Virus genome (UHGV): UHGV-0018978
DNA from: a virus
Length of the DNA stretch: 33,682 nt
Strand: one strand, 5' to 3'
A model generated the notes under the pieces. It was not told the DNA's origin, searched no databases, and saw nothing but the letters and a program-made list of their open reading frames with translations. Position numbers and translations under genes: made by a program. How positions within the stretch are numbered: position 1 is the first letter of the stretch; every line of letters begins with the position of its first letter. Below are positions 1-33,660 of the stretch, piece after piece.

Positions 1-675
1 CCTGAATAGCTTAGTGTTTAGTCGCTTTTTTGCGCGCTTATTCAGGAACCTGATGTAGCGATACTGATTAAATTTGTGTACCACGGCCCGCTCCTTATTA
101 GCCCGCAAATACACGCCTCGTTGCCCTCCACGCTTAATCGCGTTCATCGTTATCTCGTGATACCACTCACCATCCAGCTCGTAGAACGTGCTTTCATGGC
201 TGCCAATAAAATCAAAATTCGACGCCTGATATACCACACCAGCGCGTCCGCAGCGTTCGTCGGCAAAAGACTGAACCCACTCCACTGACGGATACAGTAG
301 TCTGATGGTTTTTAGCGCGTAGCTGATGGCCCGTGATTCAGAGTTGCGGGGCATGTCGTCGTGTAGCCACATGCGGTTCAGTTCCATATAGCCCCGGTTA
401 TCCGTTTCAAGCACGACCCGACGCCCTGAGTTGGGGTTAAGGGCATATCCCCACTGAAGAACGCCAACCAGATCACGTCCGCTGAATACGCCCAGATGCA
501 GGTAGGAGTTATTCACAAAACGGCGGGAATAGTGTTTTGTCTGAATGATTGTGCGGGCCAGCCAGCAGGATATGGTTTCAACGCGCAGTTCCCTTGAACC
601 ATAGCCGACAATACGGCCTTCATACTCAATAACGCAGGGTTTTGTCAGAATGCGTGATTTCTTCTCTTTTCCCAC
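1..675 (-). CDS. mom: DNA modification protein Mom, C-terminus truncated by the window start; start codon uncertain (probably non-AUG, e.g. GTG at 673-675)
   Basis: Open minus-strand frame from about 675 to position 1 with no stop, beginning inside the 3' end of com as in Mu. No in-frame ATG; a GTG with GGAG 7 nt upstream is the best start candidate. Identity rests on position and overlap with com. Confidence 0.6.
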
Positions 676-811
676 AATACAACTCCGTGGGATGCTCCTG
701 GGCACTCGATATGACAATGTAACGTTTACAGCGAGGGCACTTAATTTCTATATGCTTAAAACCTCCTTTAAACAGTAATTTATTGCAGTTTTTACAGCGA
801 ACAGAGTCCAT
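626..811 (-). CDS. com: Com, zinc-finger translational activator of mom
   Basis: Translation [33 protein letters not shown]...[16 protein letters not shown] has the Cys4 pattern and closely matches my recollection of Mu Com. ATG at 811 has a GGGGG Shine-Dalgarno upstream; the listed 81-aa ORF from 871 is probably an N-terminal over-extension. Confidence 0.8.
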
Positions 812-935
812 GTTTCCCCCTGTGTTATAACCAGATATGACCGCCCGGAGGGCTGGGGGATATTTAATCATAATTGATGCAAACCGACGATCGATATAAT
901 GATATCGATCGTCATAAACTATACAAAATGATTGC
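812..935 (-). promoter_or_regulatory. com-mom regulatory region (candidate Pmom) containing a 28-bp palindrome with two GATC sites at 886-913
   Basis: Intergenic gap between the chaperone stop (936) and com start. Sequence gACGATCGATAT-AATG-ATATCGATCGTc has 12-bp arms, each with a GATC (889-892 and 907-910). In Mu the mom promoter is controlled through clustered Dam sites. Confidence 0.5.
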
Positions 936-1505
936 TTAATCGCCTGATGTGAACGCTCTTACCTCGTCCAGGGTGGACAGCAGGGAAAGCTGCGCTTTCA
1001 TCTCTCGCTGGCGCTGATAAATTTCATCATTGCGATCAGCCTGCGCCTGAACCATTGCCGTAAGTAGTTCATCCAGTTGTTGCATTGACAACTTTACCTG
1101 CTGATTTTCCGCATCACTCCATACCATGGTTTTCGGTGCCGTGACTGATTTTGCTGACATCACCATCGGGTAAAGACGGGCCATCGAATCCGGTCCCCCG
1201 TTCCAGCTATGACCGTTCCATTCGAACGTGAACGGCTGCGCCTCCTGTTCTGTACGCCATTCTTCTATTTCCTGACGTTTGGCTGCTTTTACGGCCTCCA
1301 GCAGTTCTGGTGTCACGACGAACGGGGTAATCTCACCCCATCTCCCGCTTTGCAGTTCCTGCCAGACTCGCTGCCCTGTCTCTGCTGTATCAGTGGCAGT
1401 TGCCGTATACGGAACAGGGGCATCCATGCCATCAAACAACACCTCGCAGTCAATCGCGCCATTCTCAAGATAACGCGCATTTTCAATTCGTTTTATCTGC
1501 ATCAT
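936..1505 (-). CDS. Tail fibre assembly/chaperone protein of the second fibre module
   Basis: 189-aa ORF immediately downstream of the large fibre gene, 4-bp gap. Assignment is by position and size; the sequence is not a typical Tfa/U-type chaperone. Confidence 0.5.
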   Translation of the reverse strand: MMQIKRIENARYLENGAIDCEVLFDGMDAPVPYTATATDTAETGQRVWQELQSGRWGEITPFVVTPELLEAVKAAKRQEIEEWRTEQEAQPFTFEWNGHSWNGGPDSMARLYPMVMSAKSVTAPKTMVWSDAENQQVKLSMQQLDELLTAMVQAQADRNDEIYQRQREMKAQLSLLSTLDEVRAFTSGD

Positions 1506-1509
1506 CTAC

Positions 1510-2949
1510 CTACATAATACGGACAAACAGACCTGTTATCGAAGTACCTGCACTCACTTTAGTTGTGGGTTCCCCTGACAGTGCCACAAACGTCCCTGCC
1601 ATTGGATACGCCGAAGGCGGTGCAATTACAATCTGCGGAGTTGAGGTGCTCAGGCCATTATGGCTGTACGGCGCTGTAACAGAAATGGCAGCAAGTCTGG
1701 AGCCTGACACACCGCTTCCCCTGAAAATTCTTCCGTCTTCATCCATGTCATTTATGCAGTATGCGGCAAACACGACCCCGCCAATTCCTGGATAACCGTA
1801 ATTATTGGCTCTTCCGGCGATGGAACGTAGCGTATCCGCAATCCCTGTTTCACCCAGCTTCAACCTTTCCCAGCCAGTCAGATAACCATTACCTGTTGTC
1901 CAGTAACGGTTGTAATAAATATCGCCATTAATACCGTAGAAAATAATGACCTTTGCTGTATATCGCGGTTCCGGTGGATTATTGCGTACCTCAACCCAGC
2001 GGATGCTGACCACCCCGTTAAACAACACACCTCCGGATATGATTTTACTGCCACCATCAACAAAATATTCACCCGGCGTCGCATTCCTTGCCCAGGACAG
2101 AAAATCATCCTCTGTGTTAAAACGGATACGCTCTGCGGGCAAAAAAATATGCCCAAAACCAAATGCGCCAGGTGTCGCCAGACAGCCTTCAGTCCGGTCA
2201 CGAATGTCGCTCTGTGGCGTCATCGTGGCTGCGCTTTTCAGTCCAAGATTATCACGGGATTCCTGCTGAGCCTCTTCACCTTCATCAGCCAGCTCTGACA
2301 GGCGATTCGCCGTTTTCAGTGTCGCAGATAACGCGGTGTCAATATCCTCCCTGACATGCTCTGCATCAGATGCAGCCTGTTTAGCAGCTTCAGCGTCCTT
2401 TTTTACCTCCTCGGCGGCATTCTCAACCTGTGAGACCAGATTTTCGGCCTGTTGTTTACCCTCCGCAACCGCGTCGGCGTTCTGCTGAACACCTTCCGCC
2501 AGTTTTTTTACCTCTTCTTTTGCCCGGGCGGCAGCGTCTGCATGTTGCCCTGCCTGCTGCTCGCTTTCTGCTGCGGCTTCCGCGCTCTGCTGCGCCTGCT
2601 GTGCCAGTTCCTCGTATTTCTTCAGGGATTCCGGGCGCAGGTCAATATCGGTTGCGCCCAGAAAATCATTCAGCGAACCATCCGCTGAATCTTCATAAAC
2701 GCGGATGACACCGATTTCTGAAAGGCGCTGTACACTCTGCGTCAGGCGAACGCTGTACACGCCCGGCAGAACGGGGAAGTTATATTCCCCATTCTGTGTG
2801 GTGACGTGACTGAAAACACCTTTCAGAATCCCTGCACGGTTGTGCAGGGAGGTCAGTGTAATGGTTGCGCCGCCCAGCGGTTCTCCCGTGGGCGTTTTAA
2901 TCACACCTTTAAGCTGCGGCATCGGGACGCTCCGGCCAGTTGATGGCAT
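1510..2949 (-). CDS. Tail fibre protein (second fibre) with a central Ala/Glu/Gln-rich coiled-coil region
   Basis: 479-aa ORF. N-terminal beta-rich segment, then a long A/E/Q/K-rich segment (roughly DNA 2262-2622), then a Gly/Tyr/Asn-rich C-terminal domain. This architecture is typical of phage side tail fibres. Confidence 0.7.
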   Translation of the reverse strand: MPSTGRSVPMPQLKGVIKTPTGEPLGGATITLTSLHNRAGILKGVFSHVTTQNGEYNFPVLPGVYSVRLTQSVQRLSEIGVIRVYEDSADGSLNDFLGATDIDLRPESLKKYEELAQQAQQSAEAAAESEQQAGQHADAAARAKEEVKKLAEGVQQNADAVAEGKQQAENLVSQVENAAEEVKKDAEAAKQAASDAEHVREDIDTALSATLKTANRLSELADEGEEAQQESRDNLGLKSAATMTPQSDIRDRTEGCLATPGAFGFGHIFLPAERIRFNTEDDFLSWARNATPGEYFVDGGSKIISGGVLFNGVVSIRWVEVRNNPPEPRYTAKVIIFYGINGDIYYNRYWTTGNGYLTGWERLKLGETGIADTLRSIAGRANNYGYPGIGGVVFAAYCINDMDEDGRIFRGSGVSGSRLAAISVTAPYSHNGLSTSTPQIVIAPPSAYPMAGTFVALSGEPTTKVSAGTSITGLFVRIM

Positions 2950-3475
2950 TAAAGGAGGCTTCGTCAGTAACGGTGCTTAAATCCAGCGCCTTCACCGCTT
3001 TGATATATTCCATCCACTGCGTAAGACGGACTTTGTCATCGTCGCTGATGGTGCCCAGCTCCAGCTCGGTTTTCCAGTCGGAAGTGATTTCCTTTGCTTC
3101 ATTCAGCAAGCGCTGACGTTGCTTTTCTGCCAGTTTCGAATAATCAACAGGAACTGGCAGTACTTCGCCATCCCGGTAATACCAGCTGGCTTCGATGCCA
3201 AAACCCTCCGGCAGCTCGTCCACTTCCACAATAGTGAAGCCAGCCGGATAAAGACGGGACACGTCTTCCGCCATCGAATAAATCACGCCGGTTTCCGGGT
3301 GAATACACAATTTGTATTTCTTCGTGAATTTATCCAGTGATTCATAAAAATCCTGTCCGTCTTCACTGCGGAAATACTGAATGTTTTCACCATAAGGCAT
3401 CTCTTCCGGGTAATAACGCGTGACGTTTCTGAGTTCCATTATTTTCTCCTTAATTAGCCGGATACCGTTCGCCAT
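2909..3475 (-). CDS. Tail fibre assembly protein, Mu U / lambda Tfa-like
   Basis: 188-aa ORF directly after the first fibre gene. Assignment is by position, size and a resemblance to Tfa/U chaperones judged from memory, not from an alignment. Confidence 0.75.
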   Translation of the reverse strand: MANGIRLIKEKIMELRNVTRYYPEEMPYGENIQYFRSEDGQDFYESLDKFTKKYKLCIHPETGVIYSMAEDVSRLYPAGFTIVEVDELPEGFGIEASWYYRDGEVLPVPVDYSKLAEKQRQRLLNEAKEITSDWKTELELGTISDDDKVRLTQWMEYIKAVKALDLSTVTDEASFNAINWPERPDAAA

Positions 3476-4263
3476 CCGCCATTGATATAAATCTGGGTTT
3501 GTTTGTAATACACGCCGCCGATGTTATCCGCAGAACTTCTGCCAGTATCCTGAACGTTAATACCTGACAAAATACACCCTGAAGGCGCGCGGAATACCCA
3601 GGAAATTTCGTTACCACCGGGATTGTGAAACACTTCTCTGGTGTATCTGAAATCACGTACTGCACCAGAATCGGTGCTGCTGATGGTGATATCTCTGGTG
3701 CCATCAAACAGCACATTGTTAATCCTGCGGGCCGTCTGAAGCCGGGTTGCCGTTCCGGCATTGCCGCTGATATTGCTGATGGTGATATCCGAAGACAAAG
3801 CCATACCGTTGACCCTGCGGGTATTCGGTACAGCACTATTGGCTTTATTTACCGTGTCACGTAATGAAAGTGCATCGATAATTTCACTGGCTGTGTTTTT
3901 CCCGAGAATACCGCGCACAAACGCACTGAGCGGCGTTAATGCCATTGTGTCTTCGCCCGTAAAATACGGGAATGTATTATTCTGACCGGTTAATCCGGCA
4001 ATAGCTCCGGCTGAACCACTGTTCGTAATAAACAGTTTTTTCAGCGCTGTCATAATCTGGTCGGTTGTGTTTTTATCCGGTTTGATATTTGCCTGCCGGA
4101 GAATTTCCAGCAGTTCAGACTGAATAATATTAAACCAGTCCGGCCCCGGATACGTGGGCGGAATACCGTTCCCGCCTTCGGTGAAATAAAGCGTCGCCAT
4201 GCTTGATACCGCCGCGACAGGTGGCATCACCGGCACACCCGTCGGGTTATCCACATAAAACAT
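3454..4263 (-). CDS. Tail fibre protein, Mu S-like but short (269 aa)
   Basis: Sits immediately after the gp48-like gene and before the U-like chaperone, the position of S in Mu. N-terminus MFYVDNPTGVPVMPPVAA is of the fibre N-terminal type. Confidence 0.7.
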   Translation of the reverse strand: MFYVDNPTGVPVMPPVAAVSSMATLYFTEGGNGIPPTYPGPDWFNIIQSELLEILRQANIKPDKNTTDQIMTALKKLFITNSGSAGAIAGLTGQNNTFPYFTGEDTMALTPLSAFVRGILGKNTASEIIDALSLRDTVNKANSAVPNTRRVNGMALSSDITISNISGNAGTATRLQTARRINNVLFDGTRDITISSTDSGAVRDFRYTREVFHNPGGNEISWVFRAPSGCILSGINVQDTGRSSADNIGGVYYKQTQIYINGGWRTVSG

Positions 4264-4266
4264 AAA

Positions 4267-4851
4267 TTATTCTCCGGTGTAATAATATTCATATTCCGTA
4301 CCCGCCAGCCGGTAATGCTTCAGCAGGCATTCCAGCTCTCGGGTCCGTTCGCTGATTAATGGCGTCATAACGTCATCAATACAGGTAAACCGCCCGGCAT
4401 CGTTGTCCGGGACTTCCACTTTCAGCAGCCAGCGATACCGTGCCGGATGCAGCGGGTACATGCAGTCACGCAGGCAGTGGTGCGGCAGAACGGCCGTCAC
4501 CTTAATGGTGAAGCCCAGCGCCGCCGCTGCGGCTTCAATCTGCCAGGTTGCCAGCCCGCCTTTGCGGCGGTATTTCTCCACCACGGCCCGGAGGCGGGCT
4601 TCCGTTGTGGTGGCGGCAATTCCGCATTCCGGCAGCGCCAGATATTGCTCCCACTCCGGCAGCAGCTGGAGCGTGGTTTCCGGTCGCATCTCCACATGCA
4701 GGCGCGAGGCGTCGTATTCAACGCGGGTTAAACGCTCTGCAAGCGCCCTTAAAAAACGGTTTAAATCTGCATCGTTATCACGCGGCCATGCCTTACCCCG
4801 TGGCATGATTTGTTGCAGTGCGGTCAGCCATTCCGTCACGCTGTGAGCCAT
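4267..4851 (-). CDS. Tail/baseplate protein, Mu gp48-like
   Basis: 194-aa ORF between the J-like baseplate gene and the fibre gene, matching Mu synteny. Confidence 0.6.
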   Translation of the reverse strand: MAHSVTEWLTALQQIMPRGKAWPRDNDADLNRFLRALAERLTRVEYDASRLHVEMRPETTLQLLPEWEQYLALPECGIAATTTEARLRAVVEKYRRKGGLATWQIEAAAAALGFTIKVTAVLPHHCLRDCMYPLHPARYRWLLKVEVPDNDAGRFTCIDDVMTPLISERTRELECLLKHYRLAGTEYEYYYTGE

Positions 4852-5912
4852 GTCACCTCCCCGATGGTGATAAGCTCATCCATATCACTTGTGGTGTCTT
4901 CCCCGATGTTGAGGAAGTAATCCGTGATACCGGACGTCATACCGATGGCCGTGCGCAGCGAGGACACCGGCAGCATCTGACCGGGGGCCAGCGTTTTCTG
5001 TAATGCGGTCAGGTTTGCCCGGACGGCGTTCCTGTTCGCCTGGCTGTCTGGTGTCAGACGGATGGACAGGTCGATTTTCTTCAGTCTGACCTGTACCGGC
5101 CAGACCTCAATGCCGCCCGGTTTGCCCACCATAACGCCCGTGGCAGGGTGTTTGTGACAGAACAGATACTGCTCCATTGTCTTCAGGTCGTCCCGTGTGG
5201 GGATAATGTCTTCACGGTCATCATAAAGCCATGCCAGCCCGACTGTGCCGGGGCCGTGCCACGCATCCCATGCCCACGCGCGGCTGACGCCCGGTACTTC
5301 ACGCGCCCAGATGACGTAATCATGCAGTGCACCGCCCACCGGGGGATTGCGGCGCACATACAGCAGACGGTCCAGCAGCTCTGCGATGGATTCAATATCT
5401 GCGCCGCCGGTGATGCCACTTTCAGTCACCGCGCCTGTGCTGCCCGTTCCGGGCAACGGGGACAGCAGGGTCAGAACCGAACCGGCAGCAAGATTGCCCG
5501 CCACACCGGCTTCTTCAGCCTGCACGATGACAGTGACCTCGCCGTCCTGTACCTCGCCGGATGTGAGTACCTGATACACCTGATTCGTGTCGGACTGCAT
5601 CCGGGTTTCTGCCGGAATGGGGGACTGACTGGTGAAGGTCACCGGTCCGCTGGCAAAGGTGGCCTGCTTGCGGATAACCCCTTCATACGTTGCCGTTTTG
5701 ATAATGGTTTCATCATCAGACGCGGTGGACGGAATTATCTGGTCCTTAATCCAGCTCTGATGGTCGTATAAATCCCGAACCTGACTGCTGAATGACACGT
5801 TCAGCGCCTGCTCAACACTGACAGGCGGCAGCTTTTGCAGGCCGAGTTCATACGCAATATCTTTTTCGCCGTCGGCAATCAGTTTGCCCAGCGTGGGGAT
5901 TTCATACGGCAT
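4836..5912 (-). CDS. Baseplate J-like protein (Mu gp47-like)
   Basis: 358-aa ORF in the baseplate cluster; size and position match baseplate J family. Confidence 0.65.
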   Translation of the reverse strand: MPYEIPTLGKLIADGEKDIAYELGLQKLPPVSVEQALNVSFSSQVRDLYDHQSWIKDQIIPSTASDDETIIKTATYEGVIRKQATFASGPVTFTSQSPIPAETRMQSDTNQVYQVLTSGEVQDGEVTVIVQAEEAGVAGNLAAGSVLTLLSPLPGTGSTGAVTESGITGGADIESIAELLDRLLYVRRNPPVGGALHDYVIWAREVPGVSRAWAWDAWHGPGTVGLAWLYDDREDIIPTRDDLKTMEQYLFCHKHPATGVMVGKPGGIEVWPVQVRLKKIDLSIRLTPDSQANRNAVRANLTALQKTLAPGQMLPVSSLRTAIGMTSGITDYFLNIGEDTTSDMDELITIGEVTWLTA

Positions 5913-6354
5913 TAATGGTGGCCTCCCATCGGCGGGTGATTTCGATTGTGAGCGTGGTTTTGTCCGGGCGGGTTAACACCACCTGAAAGGCAATACAGTC
6001 AGGGATGATGATGCTGGCCGTGACGGTGGCGTTACGGGCGTAACCGGCCCGCAGCAGCGGTTGCATGGACAGCCTCGCGTAATCCTCCACACGCAGGCGG
6101 ACGTCTTCCGTCAGCTTTTCGCGCTCAAGCAGCCACAGGCGGGAACCCCACGAAAAATCGCTGTACGTGTCGCCCGGCCAGCCGCGCGGGTCGCCGGAGC
6201 TGTCAGGAATGACGTCATCGTCATCAGCACGGGCATCGGTGAAAAGGCAGATAAGAACCTGAGTGACCAGCCCCTCATCCAGTGAGAGGCCGTTATGGGT
6301 GACGGTGATGTCACCCCGTGAGAGCATGTTATTCCAGCGGATTCCTGTCGTCAT
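5902..6354 (-). CDS. Baseplate protein, Mu gp46-like
   Basis: 150-aa ORF in the conserved position between the V-like and J-like genes. Confidence 0.6.
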   Translation of the reverse strand: MTTGIRWNNMLSRGDITVTHNGLSLDEGLVTQVLICLFTDARADDDDVIPDSSGDPRGWPGDTYSDFSWGSRLWLLEREKLTEDVRLRVEDYARLSMQPLLRAGYARNATVTASIIIPDCIAFQVVLTRPDKTTLTIEITRRWEATINAV

Positions 6355-6887
6355 ACGGGCGGTGATGTATTCTCATTGTCGCCGTCCTTATGAATGTGTT
6401 CGATGAATGATTTACCGTTGATTCTGACATCTTCAGTAAATTCACAGGGACCGACGAATTTCATTTGTTTACCGATAATATTCAGCAATTCGTCGGCGGT
6501 GAGATTTACCGTTTTCCCTGAAACGTTTAATTGTTCTCCTGTGATTTCAATAATTCCGCCTTTCCTTAACGTGATATGTGATTTGCCGTCCTGGTGATAC
6601 AGCCGGACGTCGCCGGTGGACAAGCCTTTAGGGCGACATCGCTTATCCTCCACCGCGATGGCAACCAGCCCGTCACGCCGTCCGCCAACGGCCAGCACAA
6701 TGGCTTCAGAACCTTCCGGCGGAACGGAAGTAAACCCGTAGTTCTGGAAGCGTTCCACGTCGTCGTCAGTGGCATCTGCCAGCGTCTGGATTTGCAGGTT
6801 CTGCCGCTCCAGACTGTCAGACACCATGCGGACAACGGCACGATCAACCAGCAGCCGCAGACGGCGGGCAATGGCGTTTAATCCCAT
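6351..6887 (-). CDS. Baseplate assembly/spike protein V-like (Mu gp45-like)
   Basis: 178-aa ORF in the synteny position of the Mu baseplate spike. Confidence 0.6.
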   Translation of the reverse strand: MGLNAIARRLRLLVDRAVVRMVSDSLERQNLQIQTLADATDDDVERFQNYGFTSVPPEGSEAIVLAVGGRRDGLVAIAVEDKRCRPKGLSTGDVRLYHQDGKSHITLRKGGIIEITGEQLNVSGKTVNLTADELLNIIGKQMKFVGPCEFTEDVRINGKSFIEHIHKDGDNENTSPPV

Positions 6888-7948
6888 GTGGCCACCGCCT
6901 TTGTTTTCTTCGTCTTCGCTTTCATTTCCGGCATATCCAGTGATTCAGGCGGAACCAGCGCCAGAACCGTCATCCGCCCCTGTGCGCCATCCGTCCAGGT
7001 CACCCCGGATATCAGCCAGGTGGTTTTCAGGTTCTGAATGCTGTCGTCGATATCGACAAGGCGGTTGGTCTGCCACAGCGGGCCGCTGTCGCCCTGTTCG
7101 CGCCAGCCTGCCACCGTGATTTCCGTCGTGCGGGATTCCCCCAGCATCCGGGCTTTGTACCATTCCCCACGAATGCTGGCCCCGCCCACGGTCAGGCTGT
7201 CTTCATTGACCAGAATGCGCGGGCGGTAACGGTTAATTTCCGGGTCTTCGGTGATGTACTGGCGACCGCCCACCATCGGGGCAGGCTGGCTGTCCCACAG
7301 TTTGCCACCGGCACTGGTGGTGCCCTTGATGATGTACTGGCTGTTACGCTCCCGCCAGCTGAAGCGCCCACGGGCTGCGAGGATATTTTTCCCCAGCACC
7401 AGTGACACACCCGCGCGAACGGAAGAGGCGCGGGTGATAATCAGGTTACCCGCCCCGTCAGACGTCAGCAGAACGCCGCGCTGTTTTGCCAGCCGGTCGA
7501 GCAGTTCAAAACCCGTTTCACCCTGTTCCAGAACGACGGACGCAAACGCCTCCCCGGTCGGGGTTTCCGTGATGACGGTTATCCCGAACGGGCGGCAGAC
7601 ATCAGCCGCCACCTGTTCAAGCCGCACGCCTTTCCATTTCCCGGACGAATGCACCACAGAGCAGTCAACCAGGTCACCGGTTTTGTCGCGCCCCATGACG
7701 CGAATCTCCACGTTATCTGCGTCATAGCTGGGGATAAAATCATCGATATACCCTGTCAGCACGGTATCCGCACCCAGCCTGACCGTGCAGGGTTGCCCCT
7801 CACGAATCACGCGCGGTGCCGCCGCTGACCAGCGGGTTGTCACACTGAGATCAAACTCACCGGCAATCGCCTTCAGGGAACGGCTGACGGACATTTCCGT
7901 CCAGCCTTCCCACAGTTTGCCGTCAACGGTAAGAATCACGGATTCCAT
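6878..7948 (-). CDS. Tail protein, Mu gpP / P2 gpD (late control D) family
   Basis: 356-aa ORF downstream of the DNA circulation gene; size and position fit Mu gpP. Confidence 0.6.
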   Translation of the reverse strand: MESVILTVDGKLWEGWTEMSVSRSLKAIAGEFDLSVTTRWSAAAPRVIREGQPCTVRLGADTVLTGYIDDFIPSYDADNVEIRVMGRDKTGDLVDCSVVHSSGKWKGVRLEQVAADVCRPFGITVITETPTGEAFASVVLEQGETGFELLDRLAKQRGVLLTSDGAGNLIITRASSVRAGVSLVLGKNILAARGRFSWRERNSQYIIKGTTSAGGKLWDSQPAPMVGGRQYITEDPEINRYRPRILVNEDSLTVGGASIRGEWYKARMLGESRTTEITVAGWREQGDSGPLWQTNRLVDIDDSIQNLKTTWLISGVTWTDGAQGRMTVLALVPPESLDMPEMKAKTKKTKAVATWD

Positions 7949-9222
7949 CAGTCGGTAATCTCCACAGGTTGCGTCGGCAGAATGAATGACGGATGGCGCA
8001 GGCGGTTACGCTTCACGATTTCATCCCGTCGGCTGGTGTCACCATGCTCGCGCCATGCCAGCAATGCGGCAGATGTGGTTGTGGTCAACGTCACCTGCCG
8101 GGTTTCCGGCAGACGGGCGGCACGCTCGCGGGCATCCGTAATCACGGCCTGCCGTAAATCGCGCAGCGTTCGCCACAATGCCCGCTGGTTATTTTCCACC
8201 GCCGCCACCGCCTGCTCATGAAGTTCAGCCGCCAGCGTGTCACCGGCAGATAACGCCGCATCACTGGTATCGAACGTCATCGAGGCCACAGCATTTGCCT
8301 GTCCCAGCAGGGTTTCCAGCACAACCACCTGGCGGAAGTCGTCAATGTTCTTCTGCAGGCTGACAGATACCGGCTGATAATCCGGTGACAGCCCGATAGC
8401 AAAGCCAATTTCGCCGTCTGCCACGCTGCCTGGCTTCACGGTGATATCTTCCGGCAGTGCGCCGGTGGCAACCTGTCGGGCGCGTTCTCCGGCCCACTGG
8501 TTGCGTAATGTCGTGTAAACCGCCAGTGCTTCGGGTGGTTCCGTCACCAGATCAACCACGCCGTCGATGAACGAGGACAGCTCACTGACCAGGCGCCCCG
8601 GCGTGGCAATAATGGTTCCGGCCATCTCCTTAAAATGGTTCAGCCTGTCCATCCACTGATTCAGTGCTGCCGGTAGCGTGGGCAGGTTAGCCACAAGGTT
8701 TTCCATATCGGCCAGAAAGCTGTCGGCCATCTCACCCAGCCCGTCGAGTGCGCCGAACCAGTCGCCATCGTCAATGGCGGCTTTCACCGCATCAATGCCC
8801 GTCAGCACTTCCTGCTGCGTGTTATCCGCCGCAGACGGGAACAGGCGCTCGCCTGCCTCAAACACTTCAAAAGTGACATACGCAATGCCGTCTTCCTCCG
8901 TGCTGAGGCGATGGGTGACCTTGCCAACCTGTACGGTCTGTATCCCGAACCACGGGTGGATAAGCTCGCCGGGGCCGGGGGTATTGAGCGCGTCTAAAAG
9001 GGCGTTTAAATCATCCCGGAAGTTTTTACCTGGCAGCTTTGCGTTAATCTGCTGTTGCCCCGGAACGGCCCCGTTATCATCCGTCCAGGCGGTTTCACTC
9101 CGGGGGTAAGCACGGGGAATAGCCCTGCGGCCACCGGTGCCTTCTGTATCCACCAGAAAGAAGGGAACGCCGCGAAACGAGGCGTCGCGCAGCCCGTCCC
9201 ATTTGCCATTGCCTGTTGTCAT
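7948..9222 (-). CDS. Mu-like DNA circulation protein
   Basis: 424-aa ORF directly downstream of the tape measure gene, as in Mu-like phages. Confidence 0.55.
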   Translation of the reverse strand: MTTGNGKWDGLRDASFRGVPFFLVDTEGTGGRRAIPRAYPRSETAWTDDNGAVPGQQQINAKLPGKNFRDDLNALLDALNTPGPGELIHPWFGIQTVQVGKVTHRLSTEEDGIAYVTFEVFEAGERLFPSAADNTQQEVLTGIDAVKAAIDDGDWFGALDGLGEMADSFLADMENLVANLPTLPAALNQWMDRLNHFKEMAGTIIATPGRLVSELSSFIDGVVDLVTEPPEALAVYTTLRNQWAGERARQVATGALPEDITVKPGSVADGEIGFAIGLSPDYQPVSVSLQKNIDDFRQVVVLETLLGQANAVASMTFDTSDAALSAGDTLAAELHEQAVAAVENNQRALWRTLRDLRQAVITDARERAARLPETRQVTLTTTTSAALLAWREHGDTSRRDEIVKRNRLRHPSFILPTQPVEITD

Positions 9223-11069
9223 TACCCTTGCTCCACGCTGGTGACGCCAGCCTGCGCACTGAGTCTGACGCCGGGTTGATCCACTCTGACACTTTTCACG
9301 CGGGCATCACCTTCCACCACCACACGGATTTCCCCCTGCAATTGCTGCGGAAGGAAAGGATAATTCTGTGTGGGTTGCATACCTGCCCACGGTCGCGGGT
9401 CGGCAATGTTCTTGTCACCCAGCGAGTTGAACCAGTCCGTTACCTTACGCCAGACGGACTCGAGCGCTTTCTGGTTATCCTGGCTTTGTTGCGCGAACTC
9501 GCGCTCCCACGGGCTGGCGCTGGCATTACCGGCAACGAATTTTGTAAGGCTGTCAACCTCACCCGGCTGGGCATATTGCGTGGTCAGAAAATCGTAAAAC
9601 TCCAGAGCACCGGCAATGATGCCAGCGCCTTTACCTGCCTTTCCTCCACGCTTACCCGACCCCCGAGGATTGCGGGGATTGCGCGATGAATCCGGTGCAT
9701 CCGGCAGACCGCCGGTATTACCATTCATCCCGCTACTGCCCATATTGACCACATACACCGGCATCACGCCGGAGCCGAAAACATCCGTGATGCCACCGGG
9801 TATCCCTTTGCCTTTCCCTTTGGGATTCATGATGTCGTGGATGGTTTTACCGAACTGATACGTCTTTCTGATGGCGATAATGCCGCCCAGCGCGATCGCC
9901 ATATATTTACCGACCTGCAACCAGTTCTGGACAGTGTTCTGGTCCACGCTGTTGAGCGCATCAGCCAGGTCCTGAACGGGCTTTGCCAGTTGCCCTTCAG
10001 CAAAACGTTGCCATTCGTTATTCAGTGACTGTATTGCGGCATTAAAGCCTTCGGCATTGGTCTGTGCGGCCTTTTGCGTGGAACCCAGCTCAATCGTGCC
10101 GTAAATCATTTGTTCCATCAGTTGCCGGTTTTCAGGGTTGAGCAGCGCCTTAATCCCCTGCATCCCGGTCTGATCAAACACATCCTGAAGTTTCAGCGGG
10201 TCGTATTTGGCCCGTTTAAGGATTTCCATCATCAGCTCATAGGGCTTTTTGATGTCTTTTGTGCCTTTGACAAAAACGTCAATGCCGTTTTTTTTCAGGA
10301 ACTCGATGTTCTTTTTGTCCGACAGGGAAGCATACATGGCCTGAATACTGGTTACCGTCTCATCAATGCTGCCTTTGTTTTTGGCGAACACCTGAGCAAA
10401 TGCCCCCATCTGGGCAATGGCTTCCGGTCCCTGATCCTGAATGATGGAAAACAGTTTCGGGGCAGCGCGGGCAACATCGGCAACGCTTACAGACCCCACT
10501 GCGAACTGCGAATACAGCCTGTCCATCATGTTATTGACCGCATCAGCACCCCGGACGTTTTTTTCCCAGAACTGGGCCATCAGCCCGGCTGCAACCTGTC
10601 CGTCAACACCGAACGCCTGCATCATCAACCCCATGTTGCGGAGGTTGTCCACCACATACTGATAATCACCGGTTTTCCCCAGAAGTTCGCTGGCCCCCTG
10701 ACCAAGCGCAGAAGCATCAATACGAATATCTTTCTGGTTCGATACATCCCTGATTTTGTCGTGAAGCGTCTTTACCTGTTCAGTGGTTAACTGGGCATCC
10801 GTACCCATCCGGCGCATCTGCGCATCAAAATCGGCAACCTGTTTGATGGTAAGACTACTGCCAAGCCCGGCTATCATTGCCGTGTAGCGGTTACCAAGCG
10901 TATCAAGGCCGCGTCCTGCGGCCTCCGTTGTGGCTTTGACAAGGCGCATGGCCTTCTGATGGTTCCGGGCGAACTGCGACATATTTGCGCCGTACTGCCG
11001 GGCTTTGGCGGTCAGGTTCCCGGCAAGGTTGATCATGATTTCCGTGCTGAGACGGTTACCTGTTGCCAT
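9222..11069 (-). CDS. Tail tape measure protein
   Basis: 615-aa ORF between the tail chaperone and baseplate genes; Gly-rich stretches (GKGKGIPGG, GSGKRGGKAGKGAG) and predicted helical regions. Confidence 0.7.
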   Translation of the reverse strand: MATGNRLSTEIMINLAGNLTAKARQYGANMSQFARNHQKAMRLVKATTEAAGRGLDTLGNRYTAMIAGLGSSLTIKQVADFDAQMRRMGTDAQLTTEQVKTLHDKIRDVSNQKDIRIDASALGQGASELLGKTGDYQYVVDNLRNMGLMMQAFGVDGQVAAGLMAQFWEKNVRGADAVNNMMDRLYSQFAVGSVSVADVARAAPKLFSIIQDQGPEAIAQMGAFAQVFAKNKGSIDETVTSIQAMYASLSDKKNIEFLKKNGIDVFVKGTKDIKKPYELMMEILKRAKYDPLKLQDVFDQTGMQGIKALLNPENRQLMEQMIYGTIELGSTQKAAQTNAEGFNAAIQSLNNEWQRFAEGQLAKPVQDLADALNSVDQNTVQNWLQVGKYMAIALGGIIAIRKTYQFGKTIHDIMNPKGKGKGIPGGITDVFGSGVMPVYVVNMGSSGMNGNTGGLPDAPDSSRNPRNPRGSGKRGGKAGKGAGIIAGALEFYDFLTTQYAQPGEVDSLTKFVAGNASASPWEREFAQQSQDNQKALESVWRKVTDWFNSLGDKNIADPRPWAGMQPTQNYPFLPQQLQGEIRVVVEGDARVKSVRVDQPGVRLSAQAGVTSVEQG

Positions 11070-13398: not shown

Positions 13399-13617
13399 TT
13401 ACTTCCTCTTTCGTTTCTGGTTTTTGGTTTCAGAGAGGGGTGTTTCTGCCGGAATGTCAGCAATCACCACATCCCCCTCGGCTTCACGACGTCGCCAGTA
13501 CGCCCCGACGTCGAGACGTTCCCCTTCCGGGGATAAATGCGCGCCATCCGGTTTACGGACACGGACGTTTTCCCGCGCTGGCTTAATCAGTTTCTGTTCC
13601 ATCGTCACCCCGTACAT
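13399..13617 (-). CDS. Small conserved Mu-like phage protein, basic C-terminus
   Basis: 72-aa ORF ending KRKRK, stop just upstream of the sheath start. Start may be the internal Met at 13602. Confidence 0.45.
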   Translation of the reverse strand: MYGVTMEQKLIKPARENVRVRKPDGAHLSPEGERLDVGAYWRRREAEGDVVIADIPAETPLSETKNQKRKRK

Positions 13618-14194
13618 GGATCACGTCGTTAATTTCAGTGTGTTCACCGCTACGCAGCGTTGCCCCGAGGCGCAGGAAGTCCGGGAGCGCGGCGAGGTCA
13701 ATCTCTTCATCCAGCTGAAATTCCTGCTCCCACGTCACCGCCCACATGGTGACGCCCAGCCCGTCGAGGCTGGCGGAGTAAATGTTGTCTGCCCGTACAT
13801 CAGCAGCCATGCGTTCAGCCCCCATGCCCCCGGTGGCATCCGACGACAGCAGACGTTTGATCACCTTCCCGGTCAGCACTTCACAGCGCACATCGCGGGA
13901 ATACCCCCACGAATCCGTTGCCATGATGTAAGCCACCCAGGTAACCAGACCGGACAGCCCACCGCGCGGGTTGATATCCCGGATGCGCAGGGCAGCTACC
14001 CGGATACAGCCGGTACGACCGGACAGATAGCGTTTCACTTCTTCCGGGCTGTTGAACTGGCCGATGTGACGCTCCACCACGTCGGCCCGGTCAGGGGTTT
14101 TCCCCTGAAGTGCTGTTTTCAGCCAGGCCACAATGCGCTCTGCGGCCGCAACGGTGCTCCCCGGTGTGCGCAGTTCAGGGCGTTGTTCTGTCAT
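13583..14194 (-). CDS. Mu-like phage structural/morphogenesis protein
   Basis: 203-aa ORF in the head-tail joining block between head and sheath genes. Confidence 0.5.
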   Translation of the reverse strand: MTEQRPELRTPGSTVAAAERIVAWLKTALQGKTPDRADVVERHIGQFNSPEEVKRYLSGRTGCIRVAALRIRDINPRGGLSGLVTWVAYIMATDSWGYSRDVRCEVLTGKVIKRLLSSDATGGMGAERMAADVRADNIYSASLDGLGVTMWAVTWEQEFQLDEEIDLAALPDFLRLGATLRSGEHTEINDVIHVRGDDGTETD

Positions 14195-14736
14195 GGCAGA
14201 ACCTCCTTCCAGAAATGACTGATAACCTGTTGCAGCTCCTGCTGGTTGGCAGAAGACAGCCCCAGAAATTCACGTTGCGGAATGTTCATCATGCGGTTAT
14301 GTGCGCCGACGGTCTGCCAGACCGGATATTTCAGCGCCCGCCCGAAACACTGCGAGATAAGCCGCTTGTGGGCGCTGACCGGCACACTGCCGGAAAAGCC
14401 GTTATTCATGATGCGGGCATAATCCAGCGGTGAACCGATACGCACCACGCGGTTTTCCACGATGTACTGGATACTCTCCAGCAGATGGCCTTCACCACGC
14501 AGCAGGCTCTGGTTGCCGTGGCGGGTCTTTTTGTACCCGTCAGACCAGTCCGGCCAGCGTTCGCCACCCGGACTGGTTTTCTCATCGATGATGCGGCGGC
14601 GGGTCTGTGATTCCACCACCGCACCGATGCTTTCCAGCAGCTCTGCCTGCAATGAACCATCTGCCAGCTTTTCAACGGCGCGGCGGATATCCTCCAGACG
14701 CTGGTCACCGCTGACCTGTACAGAAATCCCCATCAC
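14191..14736 (-). CDS. Virion morphogenesis (tail completion) protein-like
   Basis: 181-aa ORF, 4-bp overlap with its neighbour; position matches Mu head-tail genes. Confidence 0.5.
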   Translation of the reverse strand: MMGISVQVSGDQRLEDIRRAVEKLADGSLQAELLESIGAVVESQTRRRIIDEKTSPGGERWPDWSDGYKKTRHGNQSLLRGEGHLLESIQYIVENRVVRIGSPLDYARIMNNGFSGSVPVSAHKRLISQCFGRALKYPVWQTVGAHNRMMNIPQREFLGLSSANQQELQQVISHFWKEVLP

Positions 14737-15170
14737 AGCACCCCTTTCAGGTTGTTACGGGTGAACAGCCGGGCATTGGCACCCACCACAATGATTTTCC
14801 CGTGGTCGGTTTCTGCCGGGGTGGCATACGTCGGCAGGCCCAGATCACGGGTGCCGTTCGCCATCTCACGCAGGGTTTTAATGGCGTCGTCGTAGCGTTT
14901 CTGGATCAGCTCCGTGATTTGATTGTCACGCTCTGACAACCAGTAAAACGCCAGCGATACCGCCACGCGTTGCAGCGGGCGCGGGATTTCCGTCACTCCC
15001 AGCGGCAGCTGGTAGCGGCGGGACAGAAACGAATCAATTTCCGCTTCGGCATCACTAATGGCCTGACGGATTTTGTCTTCATCCAGTTCGTTGGTTTCCC
15101 GGTTAATCGCCATGTTCCAGACAAGATTGCCGTCCGCGCGTAACAGGTCTTCCTGCGTGATATACCCCAT
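14733..15170 (-). CDS. Head-tail connector-like protein (Mu gp36-like)
   Basis: 145-aa ORF in the conserved block after the capsid gene. Confidence 0.5.
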   Translation of the reverse strand: MGYITQEDLLRADGNLVWNMAINRETNELDEDKIRQAISDAEAEIDSFLSRRYQLPLGVTEIPRPLQRVAVSLAFYWLSERDNQITELIQKRYDDAIKTLREMANGTRDLGLPTYATPAETDHGKIIVVGANARLFTRNNLKGVL

Positions 15171-24553: not shown

Positions 24554-25150
24554 TCACCCCCGCGTGGCGGACATGATGCCCAGAGGGGTATCGATGATTT
24601 CCAGACAGGCGTCGGTCAGTTCTTCCATGCGGTTAAACCAGCCGTTCAGGTATTTGCCACGAGCGGGTTTTGATTTGATGAGGCCCGCATAAAAGCGGCA
24701 ACGGCGAACAATGCAGCGGGACAGCAGCCAGTCCGGGGTGGACAGGCTCACAGCCTTGCGGGTACGCGGGCCGATGATGCCATCGGCAGACACATCAGCG
24801 GCTTCCTGTAAAAACTTGACGGCTTGCTCCACGCCATGCTGAACAGCCGCATCAAACACAAAGAGCGCCACACCATCAGGCCACTGATCACACCCGGCAA
24901 GCAGCCAGTAATCGCGCCAGTAAATCTGCGCAACCTGTTCGCGGGTCAAATCCTTAATGCGGGTATCTGGTTTGCCGTCGCCGTTGACATCGGTTTTGCC
25001 GTCAATCACACCGTCGCGGCGGTCAGAAATGCCGTATTTTGTTTCGCCGCCGCTGTCAGTGGGGTCATTGACATAGCCGCCTTCGATATCAGGACGCAGA
25101 ATAAAATTCAGCGCATGTTCAAAGGCCGGGGAGAATTTTTGATTTTCCAT
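24554..25150 (-). CDS. Endolysin, GH108-type lysozyme with a peptidoglycan-binding domain
   Basis: 198 aa. The N-terminal EGGYVNDPTDSGGETKYGIS motif is characteristic of GH108 enzymes. No N-terminal transmembrane/SAR segment. Confidence 0.75.
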   Translation of the reverse strand: MENQKFSPAFEHALNFILRPDIEGGYVNDPTDSGGETKYGISDRRDGVIDGKTDVNGDGKPDTRIKDLTREQVAQIYWRDYWLLAGCDQWPDGVALFVFDAAVQHGVEQAVKFLQEAADVSADGIIGPRTRKAVSLSTPDWLLSRCIVRRCRFYAGLIKSKPARGKYLNGWFNRMEELTDACLEIIDTPLGIMSATRG

Positions 25151-25205
25151 AAAAGCACCTGTGAAGCAGATTTAAACGTGGTCTGCTTCATGGTGCCGGA
25201 GGCAT

Positions 25206-25227
25206 AAAAAAAGCCGGATTTACCGGC
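25206..25227 (-). terminator. Rho-independent terminator (GCCGG-TAAAT-CCGGC plus T7) downstream of the secreted-protein gene
   Basis: Same stem-loop as at 17470-17492, with a T-run on the minus strand, about 25 bp after the stop of the 25252-25749 gene. Confidence 0.65.
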
Positions 25228-25251
25228 TTCATTGAATATAAGGTTATTGGT

Positions 25252-25749
25252 TCAGTTAACTTTACGGGCAGAACACGTAGTCTTCATTACTGAACGTTCA
25301 ATTTTTATCTTCCAGCCATTTACTGTTTTTTCGACAGGATCATCTTCAGCTTGCTTTAAATTTTTAACTTGCATGAAATTCAGCGGGGCTGGGGTATCAT
25401 CGTCCCATGATGTCGGGCGAACATAATCAGGGACAACAAAAGGCTCAAAAACAGTTTCACATAAAGCAGACGTCATTTGAGCGAACTCGTCGCTATCGGG
25501 GCGAACCGGTCCTGTAACATACTGCATTTTTATGTTGATTTCGTTATCTCGCACAGACGTCTTTAAATCCTGATATACACCTAAGTTAAATCCTTTAAAC
25601 TCAGCAATGGCAGCGTCACCTTTACCGTACCAGTCGGTATAGTCAACGGATGTTTTTTTCTGAAAAACATCTTTGACTTTTTGCTGGAATGTATCCGCCG
25701 CTTGTACAGTAGTAACAGTTAGTAAAAGAATAAGGGGAAGATATTTCAT
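25252..25749 (-). CDS. Secreted/periplasmic protein of unknown function with an N-terminal signal peptide (candidate moron)
   Basis: 165 aa starting MKYLPLILLLTVTTVQA-ADT, a typical Sec signal. The gene is AT-rich relative to the flanking phage genes and has its own terminator. Confidence 0.6.
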   Translation of the reverse strand: MKYLPLILLLTVTTVQAADTFQQKVKDVFQKKTSVDYTDWYGKGDAAIAEFKGFNLGVYQDLKTSVRDNEINIKMQYVTGPVRPDSDEFAQMTSALCETVFEPFVVPDYVRPTSWDDDTPAPLNFMQVKNLKQAEDDPVEKTVNGWKIKIERSVMKTTCSARKVN

Positions 25750-26147
25750 TGTTCGTCCTTAAATAGTTGCATTTGATACTTTCCACGCTCCAGTCGGCGC
25801 ATTCTTTTGATGGCCTGATATACCGTTTTGTATGTCACTTTGTAACGCTGCACCAGCTCCGCTACGTTTTTCCCATCAAAATCACGCCAGATGCGCATGT
25901 CTCTGATAAGATTTTCCAGTATTTTCCCTTTCGGAACATATACCTGAATCCCACCGATATGATTGCAAATCGCCACTACCAGCTCAAGGGAGTGGGCAGG
26001 GTTAACTCCAAGCCTTATCAGCTCTTGTCGCAACAGAGCATTCAGCTCAGCCAGTAAAGATGGAAATCCCGATTTTTCCTGAACATCATCAAAATATTCA
26101 AGGATACTGTCGTCCTGATAATCACCAAATAAATCCTGCTCTTTCAT
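25746..26147 (-). CDS. mor: Mor/C-family transcriptional activator
   Basis: 133 aa with an acidic N-terminus and a C-terminal helix-turn-helix (TYKTVYQAIKRMRRL); sits directly after gemA, as mor does in Mu. Whether it is the Mor or the C orthologue cannot be settled from sequence alone. Confidence 0.7.
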   Translation of the reverse strand: MKEQDLFGDYQDDSILEYFDDVQEKSGFPSLLAELNALLRQELIRLGVNPAHSLELVVAICNHIGGIQVYVPKGKILENLIRDMRIWRDFDGKNVAELVQRYKVTYKTVYQAIKRMRRLERGKYQMQLFKDEQ

Positions 26148-26695
26148 AGAACTATTCTCCCGCTGTTTCTGGCGCGGGCATACGCACTGGTCAGTGCATC
26201 ATATCCGCGCAGTTCCCGCCCGGTTTCGCTCACAGGTAAAGGCACGCCATGTCGGGTAAAGGCTTCCCGAATGCAGCGCATATGCCACTGCTTGAGCGTT
26301 TCGAGCACAACCTGCAACGATTCCCCATGACACCAGGCCAGCGTGGAAACACCCTGACCACCATTACGTCTGGCCGTCAGGCGTGCAACGTATTTGTCCA
26401 GCGCGGCGTCGCTGCCATCAGAGACAAAACCATCAAAGGACATCTGCTGCCAGATTTTATAAATCTTCTCGCGTGGTGTGACATACCCCTTAAAGCGACG
26501 TCGGGGATGTTTTTTCTGCTTCTTAAACCCGCGCTCTTTCATGGCATCGAGCACCTGTTCCAGTTGTGCAACGGACAGCTCGCGGCAACTGGTTTTGCCC
26601 GTGCACTGCACCAGAAAGGCTCGGTAAGTGTCATCGTCGAGGTGCAACTCCCGGCGGGCAACATGAATTAATTTAATCAGGGATGTGCGACTCAT
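26144..26695 (-). CDS. gemA: GemA-like regulatory protein (Mu gp16 family)
   Basis: 183-aa ORF immediately upstream of the Mor-like gene, matching the Mu gemA-mor arrangement. Confidence 0.65.
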   Translation of the reverse strand: MSRTSLIKLIHVARRELHLDDDTYRAFLVQCTGKTSCRELSVAQLEQVLDAMKERGFKKQKKHPRRRFKGYVTPREKIYKIWQQMSFDGFVSDGSDAALDKYVARLTARRNGGQGVSTLAWCHGESLQVVLETLKQWHMRCIREAFTRHGVPLPVSETGRELRGYDALTSAYARARNSGRIVL

Positions 26696-27062
26696 TTTGC
26701 CCCATCTCCTTAATGCAGTGTTTTTCGACCCATGTCACACGAGCAGAATTCAGGTGGCATCTGTCATGTAGGCATTCATCATGGTAGTGCACGTTATCTA
26801 CATTAAATGGCAGGGATTCATCCAGCCCACTCGCGACAAAATCCGCATGTAATTGTTCTAGCGCAGCTTCGCTGTCTGCCCCGATTGATTCAAAATAGTC
26901 ATAAACATTGGCGCATAATCCGACTCCACGAATAAACCCTTCCCCTTCCGTTTCTTGCGCTCCGTTTTTTAACCACTGGTTATAGGCGACATAAAAATCA
27001 TAAAGATGTTTTCTGATGCTGGCGGATGTGGATTTAATTTCATTTTTCTCTGCGTTATTCAT
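26673..27062 (-). CDS. Hypothetical early-region protein
   Basis: 129-aa acidic ORF in the semi-essential early region; no motif recognised. Confidence 0.45.
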   Translation of the reverse strand: MNNAEKNEIKSTSASIRKHLYDFYVAYNQWLKNGAQETEGEGFIRGVGLCANVYDYFESIGADSEAALEQLHADFVASGLDESLPFNVDNVHYHDECLHDRCHLNSARVTWVEKHCIKEMGQNESHIPD

Positions 27063-27237
27063 TTCTTAATACCTCTTCGCAATAAAAGATTTCGCTTGGA
27101 TAACGTTTTTGTATGCGCTCCATCACCTGCATACATGCCTGCTCTGTGGGCCAGATTTTTTCTGTTACCGGAATGGCATCACAGGCATCATTTCCACAGG
27201 TGCCAACCAGCAGGACAAAGCCAATTAACTTAATCAT
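27055..27237 (-). CDS. Small signal-peptide/lipoprotein-like protein
   Basis: Internal start MIKLIGFVLLVGTCGND... gives a 61-aa protein with a hydrophobic leader ending near Cys; ATG at 27237 lies 2 nt after the upstream stop. The listed 92-aa ORF is probably over-extended. Confidence 0.4.
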   Translation of the reverse strand: MIKLIGFVLLVGTCGNDACDAIPVTEKIWPTEQACMQVMERIQKRYPSEIFYCEEVLRNE

Positions 27238-27772: not shown

Positions 27773-27775
27773 CGG

Positions 27776-28381: not shown

Positions 28382-28421
28382 AATTAAACGAATGTGAATT
28401 AATTAAATATTAATGGTGGTA

Positions 28422-28946: not shown

Positions 28947-28966
28947 ATAAATAAAGCTCCTGTTAA

Positions 28967-29686: not shown

Positions 29687-29700
29687 TGTCAGCGTTCCTT

Positions 29701-29964: not shown

Positions 29965-29975
29965 TTTGTTTCTCC

Positions 29976-31392: not shown

Positions 31393-31430
31393 CTTAATAA
31401 CCTCGTAATCAAATTTTATTTAAACGTTAA

Positions 31431-33403: not shown

Positions 33404-33410
33404 AGCGCAC

Positions 33411-33632: not shown

Positions 33633-33660
33633 TTCATGTAATCCTTTCAGATTCACCCGT

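Follow-up and report, generated by a model that had tools for sequence, protein, structure and literature searches.

A mosaic second tail fibre with a lambda Stf-type anchor at the end of the tail operon of a Mu-like Escherichia coli prophage

The viral genome UHGV-0018978 is a stretch of 33,682 nucleotides (nt), referred to below in its whole length as the window, which to judge from its sequence derives from a transposable Mu-like prophage of Escherichia coli. At the end of its tail operon, behind a fibre gene of the Mu type, lies a second fibre gene (fibre 2; 1510-2922, minus strand). What kind of fibre does this gene encode, how was it put together, and where on the particle would its product be held? 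Our answer to the first question, to which we attach a probability of about 80%, is that fibre 2 belongs to the lambda Stf class and serves as an accessory fibre for receptor binding, its gene and that of its chaperone forming the second of the two such pairs that end the tail operon. As to the second, the gene is a mosaic, as had been proposed in an earlier note made from the letters of this DNA: its anchor falls into clades that follow the phage chassis, while its distal part has been exchanged.

The earlier note read the gene as encoding 479 amino acids (aa). A 479-codon open reading frame (ORF) is indeed present and intact at 1510-2949 (minus strand), though the protein itself is likely to be shorter. 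The database copies are all 470 aa long and begin at Met10 of the ORF (ATG 2922); P0001-P0004, from E. coli, are 100% identical to fibre 2, and identical proteins already stand in RefSeq under a generic name. A GGAG sequence lies 7 nt upstream from ATG 2922, which overlaps the stop codon of the preceding gene, that of the chaperone Tfa1, by 14 nt; no Shine-Dalgarno sequence precedes ATG 2949. Thus, the true start is most likely ATG 2922, giving a protein of 470 aa plus the stop codon. The AlphaFold2 (AF2) model of this form as a monomer comprises a beta sandwich (residues 1-75), a single helix (98-225) and a mixed C-terminal part. Together with the PF08400 match of the N-terminus described below, this agrees with the three-part architecture that had been predicted.

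The N-terminal domain is what ties fibre 2 to lambda Stf. Residues 1-90 (2653-2922, minus strand) make up a "collar" anchor of the transthyretin/carboxypeptidase-regulatory-like beta sandwich type. ORF residues 13-139 match the Pfam family PF08400 (phage_tail_N) with an E value of 5e-28 and 98 bits (cut-off 26.6), and the anchor is 37-40% identical to that of lambda Stf, whose N-terminal half, orf-401, was used for the comparison. Two solved structures are matched in sequence, the N collar domain of Ur-lambda Stf (PDB 9e7m, E 7e-9) and the collar spike gp40 of the Vibrio myophage XM1 (PDB 7kjk, E 9e-8, 26% identity), the latter over residues 3-204 and hence into the coiled coil. Foldseek placed the predicted anchor fold on 9e7m with a TMt of 0.78 (E 4e-6) and on XM1 gp40 with a probability of 1.0. 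Twelve Stf N-domains form a collar around the gpV/gpM junction of Ur-lambda, and a flexible linker connects the collar domains of each trimer with its coiled coil (PMC12617516). The neck of XM1 carries gp40 as six trimers, which bind gp4 (head completion) and gp5 (tail terminator); gp40 itself consists of an N-terminal domain (NTD), ~100 residues of coiled coil and a binding domain (PMC10457771). The lambdoid homology had been expected in the coiled coil. It resides instead in the beta-rich N-domain, the coil of fibre 2 having no detectable sequence similarity to that of lambda. Membership in the lambda side-fibre class is nonetheless borne out by full-length homologues which, with their DUF4376 partners, directly follow J-lom in lambdoid prophages of Shigella and E. 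coli.

A short linker, ATDIDLRPE (2632-2652, minus strand), defined by AF2 secondary structure and low pLDDT and corresponding to the flexible linker of lambda Stf (residues 92-101), leads from the anchor to an alpha-helical coiled-coil shaft at residues 98-225 (ORF 107-234; 2248-2631, minus strand). Along the shaft, one period dominates the hydrophobicity, that of 3.5 residues, whose power of 244 (22 for the next best) was reached in none of 2000 shuffles. The heptad register is unbroken over 128 residues, with A, L, V or I at 27 of the 36 a/d positions, and the composition (A 23%, E 17%, Q 12%, K 8%) fits the Ala/Glu/Gln/Lys-rich coil of about 120 residues announced beforehand. Assuming a rise of ~0.15 nm for each of the 128 residues, we estimate the length of the shaft at ~19 nm. 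The coil also contains a 36-nt direct repeat, with copies 105 nt apart at 2377-2412 (EEVKKDAEAAKQ) and 2482-2517 (EEVKKLAEGVQQ); the internal duplication of 35 residues equals exactly five heptads, so that the register is kept. At 2227-2331 (minus strand) the alignment columns reveal a junction motif, LSATLKTANRLSEL...RDNLGLKSAA, that is invariant in the homologues. This motif is the only stretch of fibre 2 resembling Mu S. BLASTP aligned 31 residues of it, and nothing else, with residues 83-113 of Mu S, and tblastn against the whole right end of Mu, including S', found nothing besides it (E 0.066); that the protein is unlike Mu S had been rightly noted.

The C-terminal part, residues 226-470 (1513-2247, minus strand), is the putative receptor-binding region, delimited by the AF2 model and by the identities given below. 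AF2 predicted a sub-domain at ~260-350 well and the distal part with low confidence. The 244 C-terminal residues contain 13% G, 4.9% Y and 4.9% N, so that a Gly/Tyr/Asn-rich character, claimed for the domain as a whole, applies to residues 330-400 (G 17%, Y 13%, N 8.5%) and not to the remainder. Identity in this region is ~99% with P0016, from a phiP27-like prophage, 86% with P0048, 39% with phiP27 L56 and 34% with Av-05 gp076. The region recurs in phiP27 L56, in Rac-SA53 tail3 and in virulent Vequintavirinae such as Av-05, where a DUF4376 gene comes after it, and jumbo phage Goslar shares a shorter segment (fibre 2 residues 203-365). In the comparison with lambda, which covered orf-401, no similarity was seen past residue 135; the C-terminal half of Stf is encoded by orf-314. 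In homologues of ~730 aa (P0019, P0023, P0027, P0037 and P0049) the C-terminal unit is doubled, corresponding to fibre 2 residues ~200-370 and then ~200-478 at 30-42% identity; the arrangement resembles the knob duplication in the fibre of Alteromonas phage A5.

The gene adjoining fibre 2 at 936-1505 (minus strand) encodes a DUF4376 tail-fibre chaperone of 188-189 aa. Its start lies 5-8 nt past the fibre 2 stop, with a gap of 4 nt before the first ATG, the databases beginning it one codon inside the 189-aa ORF. Residues 72-181, the C-terminal two thirds, match Pfam PF14301 (DUF4376) with an E value of 1e-17 and 64.8 bits (cut-off 25); the AF2 model has a pLDDT of 90, and a Foldseek search of BFVD returned DUF4376 proteins. 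The statement that this chaperone is not of the Tfa/U type proved correct: BLASTP was negative, Pfam assigns the protein to DUF4376 and not to Caudo_TAP, and profile-profile comparison gave a probability of 0.6%. A published occurrence of DUF4376 in Mu U (PMC7882524) was not reproduced, Mu U matching Caudo_TAP only and the two families being without profile similarity. In every context examined, a DUF4376 homologue follows the related fibre, and in the E. coli prophage locus L012 the receptor-binding region and the chaperone gene form one contiguous match of 89% nt identity. The family includes an experimentally required fibre chaperone of Alteromonas phage V22 and a partner needed by the H-fibre of Campylobacter CJIE1 (PMC7289586, PMC10579305, PMC7882524).

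Comparison of the fibre in its various contexts indicated how the gene was assembled. Clades of the N-domain, defined by pairwise identity, are 30-48% identical to one another. One comprises transposable Mu-like prophages (96-100% identity within the clade), another phiP27, Rac-SA53, P2-like prophages and a Salmonella myovirus-type prophage (68-98%), and the third is lambda-type (~53%). Among Mu-like prophages of E. coli and Salmonella, the baseplate, fibre 1, Tfa and the anchor of fibre 2 stay the same, and the distal parts of the second fibres differ greatly; these measure 733-803 aa, some with Phage_fiber_2 repeats. Across chassis it is the distal part that is shared. P0016, whose phiP27-like prophage lies beside the trp operon, has only ~38% identity to fibre 2 in the N-domain but ~99% over everything that follows about residue 125. 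In the HP1/P2-like prophage of locus L012, a single stretch of 1.3 kb, at 88.7% nt identity, encodes both the receptor-binding region and the chaperone, with the receptor-binding region fused to a PF12571 anchor in the second of two fibre/chaperone pairs; P0048 has a PF12571 anchor on the same receptor-binding region (86% identity). Two recombination junctions emerge from these alignments. The first falls in the first coil heptads (near residue 120-125, about window 2550-2566), the second at the motif LSATLKTANRLSEL...NLGLKSAA near window 2321, the 5' limit of the segment common to the HP1-like prophage. The alignments thus show that the distal three quarters of fibre 2 and the chaperone were recently exchanged with phiP27-like and HP1/P2-like prophages. 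The anchor is chassis-specific, and recent exchange is seen only in the portion from about residue 125 onward and in the chaperone. The idea of a horizontally acquired cassette, put forward in the earlier note, therefore stands for the distal part and chaperone and fails for the whole module, whose layout is standard elsewhere and whose anchor belongs to the chassis.

The L012 locus (5579-9822, E. coli) has a further feature. Its two tandem fibre/chaperone pairs both carry PF12571-type anchors, 33% identical to each other; since the anchors are related, the two fibres may compete for the same baseplate dock. In the Mu-like prophage, by contrast, the anchors of the two fibres are unrelated.

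That the layout is an ordinary one is evident from its distribution. The order S-like fibre, Tfa, PF08400 fibre and DUF4376 protein is found in phiP27 (L54-L57), in Rac-SA53 (tail1-4) and in a phiP27-like prophage; the same four genes end the tail operon in many Mu-like prophages of E. coli and Salmonella that carry com-mom, and the arrangement has been in GenBank since phiP27. The pair formed by the fibre and the DUF4376 protein supplements a primary receptor-binding protein in at least four chassis. Lambdoid prophages of Shigella and E. coli carry it behind J-lom, Mu-like and phiP27-like prophages behind the S/U-like pair, an HP1-like prophage behind an H/G-like pair and a P2-like one behind gpD. 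In the latter (L029 6001-7996, E. coli), the PF08400 fibre and DUF4376 genes end the P2-type tail cluster. The L029 fibre, 66% identical overall to fibre 2 and belonging to a cluster of 368 member sequences, is encoded far from the H/G fibre genes, in a cargo-like position.

From these elements a mode of action can be proposed. Fibre 2 would be a homotrimer, held on the particle by its three anchor domains and continuing into the coiled-coil shaft; its C-terminal domain would bind a cell-surface receptor. Folding of this domain would require the DUF4376 protein, by analogy with V22 gp26/gp27 and the CJIE1 H-fibre. Given the 14-nt overlap, fibre 2 would be translated with fibre 1 and Tfa1, and the virion would display two specificities at once. 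Mu alternates between S/U and S'/U' by Gin inversion at this genomic position, where the pairs of the prophage would instead be static. Several points weigh against this account and against our assignment of the fibre. We infer trimeric state, receptor binding, chaperone dependence, co-display and location, the first and third of these by analogy with relatives whose similarity is confined to the DUF4376 domain. With a mean pLDDT of 57, the monomer predicted by AF2 is of poor overall quality, its distal ~115 residues being of low confidence, and for the C-terminal region neither a solved nor an annotated homologue exists, Foldseek matches being insignificant (R-pyocin fibres, E ~0.1). At 38-40% identity to lambda Stf and 26% to XM1 gp40, the anchor does not allow the docking partner to be transferred from either phage; moreover, phmmer searches of the two neck ORFs, one of 181 aa at 14191-14736 and one of 203 aa at 13583-14194, against the PDB returned no XM1 gp4 or gp5 chain.

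Where, then, would fibre 2 be attached? One possibility, to which we give somewhat less than even odds, is a position at the neck or collar, as for XM1 gp40; the N-domains of six trimers would then ring the adaptor/terminator junction, and the fibre would make the first, reversible contact with the cell. Fibre 2 reproduces the architecture of gp40 part for part, and the sequence match covers both NTD and coil at the E value and Foldseek probability reported above. The fold of Mu gp36 is found in XM1 gp1, and the prophage encodes a gp36 homologue at 14733-15170. Each wedge of the Mu virion holds one fibre, the N-terminus of S being docked on a gp48 loop (PMC11915804). The six gp48 docks are expected to be taken by fibre 1, so that fibre 2, with its unrelated anchor, must attach elsewhere. 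On the other hand, the estimated length of ~19 nm makes for a short coil in comparison with a Mu-type tail, which is several times longer, and a fibre at the neck could reach the cell only with the particle lying sideways. Besides, the neck of Mu consists of gp36 and gp37 only, with no equivalent of XM1 gp4 reported (PMC11915804), and no sequence similarity of the neck proteins of the prophage to XM1 gp4 or gp5 was detected.

It is rather doubtful that fibre 2 is a second baseplate fibre, attached next to fibre 1, or to fibre 1 itself, on the rim of the Mu-type baseplate, which would thereby gain two specificities. Such a location would suit the position of the gene, directly after those for the baseplate and fibre 1, and its translational coupling to Tfa1; furthermore, an insertion of ~15 residues in the gp48 homologue, common to phiP27, adjoins the docking loop and could constitute an extra dock. 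Yet the anchor is unrelated to the N-terminus of Mu S that docks on gp48. The homologous domain binds the outside of hexameric tube-like rings in both solved virions, and contractile tails expose these only at the neck; in the P2-like prophage the same cassette lies after gpD, away from the baseplate genes. Our guess, made by analogy, is that the neck is the better supported location than the wedge, because the sole contractile precedent is there, because exposed tube-like rings are present only there and because the gp48 docks are expected to be occupied. When the earlier note spoke of a graft onto a Mu-type baseplate, it took attachment to the baseplate for granted; XM1 has the homologous anchor at its neck, and in lambda it surrounds the tube. 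By tentative extension, the PF08400 second fibres of Mu-like and related temperate myoviruses may be neck or collar fibres of the XM1 gp40 kind. Should this be the case, these phages would have the S homologue as receptor-binding protein on the baseplate, and the head-tail junction would bear another that can be swapped freely. Two cassettes in tandem would then represent a static alternative to Gin-driven host-range switching, and the three chassis-following anchor clades would reflect co-evolution with the docking ring proteins.

We consider it very improbable that fibre 2 and its chaperone are passenger DNA, left behind by prophage recombination and put to no use. The fibre region is host-like in composition, unlike the tail genes, and several E. 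coli relatives have the fibre annotated as a pseudogene. However, the ORFs of the pair are intact, with a good Shine-Dalgarno sequence and translational coupling; dN/dS values of 0.19 for the anchor and 0.16 for the chaperone denote purifying selection; and the anchor clade is chassis-specific and 96-100% conserved while the distal parts vary. Furthermore, the protein is identical across many independent prophage insertions. It is found unchanged on 24 contigs, and the four loci displayed correspond to four unrelated chromosomal sites (eut, xdh, rha and flagellar genes), the mark of a transposable phage that still circulates. Identity at several chromosomal sites and dN/dS values of 0.16-0.19 indicate that the gene is live. 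As for composition, the GC content at third codon positions (GC3) is 0.50-0.56 in fibre 1, Tfa1, fibre 2 and the chaperone. Of the six baseplate genes measured on the flank, gp43, gp44 and gp46-48 have values of 0.65-0.72 and gp45 one of 0.56. The step thus lies at the gp48/fibre 1 boundary and covers both fibre cassettes; fibre 2 is not singled out. A further reading is a T4 fibritin-like whisker that would aid assembly or retraction of fibre 1 and not bind receptors, a highly unlikely role which a coiled-coil shaft on a ring-binding N-domain, as in collar whiskers, may evoke, but which is at odds with the marks of receptor binding in the C-terminal region (large, hypervariable, horizontally exchanged and with a dedicated chaperone) and with the binding of OmpC or O-antigen by the lambda and Gifsy-1 Stf proteins, whose N-terminal anchor is PF08400.

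Truncated or interrupted second fibres, annotated as pseudogenes in RefSeq, are found in E. coli STEC1575 and RM11911 (L001 7020-8954 and L002 5157-5517, respectively). Both strains carry the same Mu-like prophage, and the anchor-coding part is 92-100% identical to the window.

The remaining genes of the tail end, all on the minus strand, are those expected of a Mu relative. The gp48 homologue, a baseplate wedge protein recognized by Pfam and 31% identical to Mu gp48, is encoded at 4267-4851. Fibre 1 (3454-4263) is by alignment a true homologue of Mu S; the two proteins share the N-terminal ~80 residues and the extreme C-terminus, with 33% identity over residues 1-166. Tfa1 (2909-3439, ORF to 3475), the chaperone of fibre 1, is a Caudo_TAP protein identified by Pfam and by its similarity to Mu U (24% identity, E 1e-20). 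Beyond the second pair, com (626-811, Pfam) is separated from the DUF4376 gene by 64 nt and is followed downstream by mom (1-675), cut by the edge of the window. No gin gene was found between the fibre genes and com, and the inverted repeats in window 1-5000 do not exceed 23 nt or 87% complementarity, none resembling a recombination site. An invertible segment of the G type was consequently rejected, neither gin nor gix-like inverted repeats being present at the locus. The gap between the DUF4376 stop codon and com does hold, at 886-913, a perfect 12-nt inverted repeat, GACGATCGATAT / CATT / ATATCGATCGTC, with two GATC sites. The mom promoter of Mu is controlled via Dam-methylated GATC sites and OxyR, and we presume that the repeat may be the counterpart of the Mu mom control region.

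Fibre 1 is short for a homologue of Mu S (269 aa as opposed to 504) and is itself mosaic, with a Mu S-type N-terminus and, over the last 73 residues, an identity of 77-78% to the tips of Rac-SA53 tail1 and of fibre 1 of the HP1-like prophage. Window 3141-3652, comprising the N-terminal part of Tfa1 and the fibre 1 tip, has 82-83% nt identity to the same two elements. The ~15-residue insertion in the gp48 homologue (HHCLRDCMYPLHPAR, residues 124-138, window 4438-4482) directly precedes the stretch aligned to the fibre-docking loop of Mu gp48. It is also found in phiP27 L53 and is missing from Mu gp48; both phages that have it carry a PF08400 second fibre, making two cases versus one.

The window as a whole has coding sequences on the minus strand only, including those for MuA, MuB, a Mu-type portal, the major head protein gpT, gp36, the tail sheath and baseplate proteins gp43 to gp48. 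One E. coli assembly matches window 1-7000 at 99.4% identity, and GCA_903974555.1 is an example of an E. coli isolate that carries the prophage. Searches of the phage collection for near-identical DNA found no sequenced phage close to the prophage, the sole matches being Rac-SA53 (75% over 0.5 kb) and a Klebsiella phage (72% over 1.5 kb). The backbone is two-toned, with a GC content of 0.42-0.53 at window ~25000-33682 (early and transposition genes) and at the fibre/com-mom end, and of 0.54-0.62 in the head, tail and baseplate block (~4500-25000).

Taken by itself, fibre 2 is a routine mosaic prophage fibre, and its wider value is as a clean example of modular fibre building. A chassis-specific anchor of ~90-120 residues is joined, in the first coil heptads or at a conserved NLGL-type motif, to a portable unit of shaft, binding domain and chaperone that moves among lambda-like, Mu-like, phiP27-like and P2/HP1-like phages. 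What can be reused from these results are the exact splice points and the anchor clades specific to each chassis, and the junctions offer ready-made splice points for host-range engineering.

Among known systems, the Alteromonas phages V22 (gp26/gp27) and A5 (gp8/gp9) also have a DUF4376 gene immediately downstream from the fibre gene, a pair common to phages of differing morphotypes; only the DUF4376 domain is shared, however, the fibres being unrelated in sequence and the hosts marine bacteria. XM1 is the only solved contractile-tailed phage with a PF08400-type anchor, and its gp40 follows the same succession of NTD, ~100-residue coil and binding domain. It differs in its length of 839 aa, its tailspike-like C-terminus and its 26% identity, and gp4 and gp5 have no detectable sequence homologues here. 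Lambda Stf (Ur-lambda; PDB 9e7m/9mgh) shares the homologous collar domain, the flexible linker and the presence of a coiled coil, trimeric in lambda, and is likewise accessory to a primary receptor-binding protein. Its coil and its gp37-like C-terminus (in the comparison with orf-401) are unrelated, though, and its chaperone is a Tfa protein (Caudo_TAP). Lambda is moreover a siphovirus, and the gpV/gpM ring site would be covered by sheath and baseplate in a contractile tail. The Stf gene lies behind J-lom, that for fibre 2 behind Mu-type gp48, fibre 1 and Tfa1.

Closest in layout is phiP27, where the identical four genes follow a Mu-type baseplate: a short fibre, a Caudo_TAP protein, a PF08400 fibre of 490 aa and a DUF4376 protein. 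The full length of L56 can be aligned with fibre 2 (43% identity), and L57 is 69% identical to the chaperone. The N-domain of L56 belongs to another clade (38% identity), the coil being 64% and the receptor-binding region 39% identical, and phiP27 is an integrase-type Stx2e phage as opposed to a transposable phage with com-mom. With Mu itself the prophage has in common the genomic position of the fibre genes, from the baseplate genes to com-mom, the presence of two fibre/chaperone pairs, and fibre 1 and Tfa1 as homologues of S and U. In Mu the order from gp48 to com is S, U, inverted U' and S', and gin. In the prophage, neither fibre 2 nor its chaperone is a homologue of S, S', U or U', and both pairs have the same orientation, without gin; the two specificities would thus be simultaneous and not alternating.

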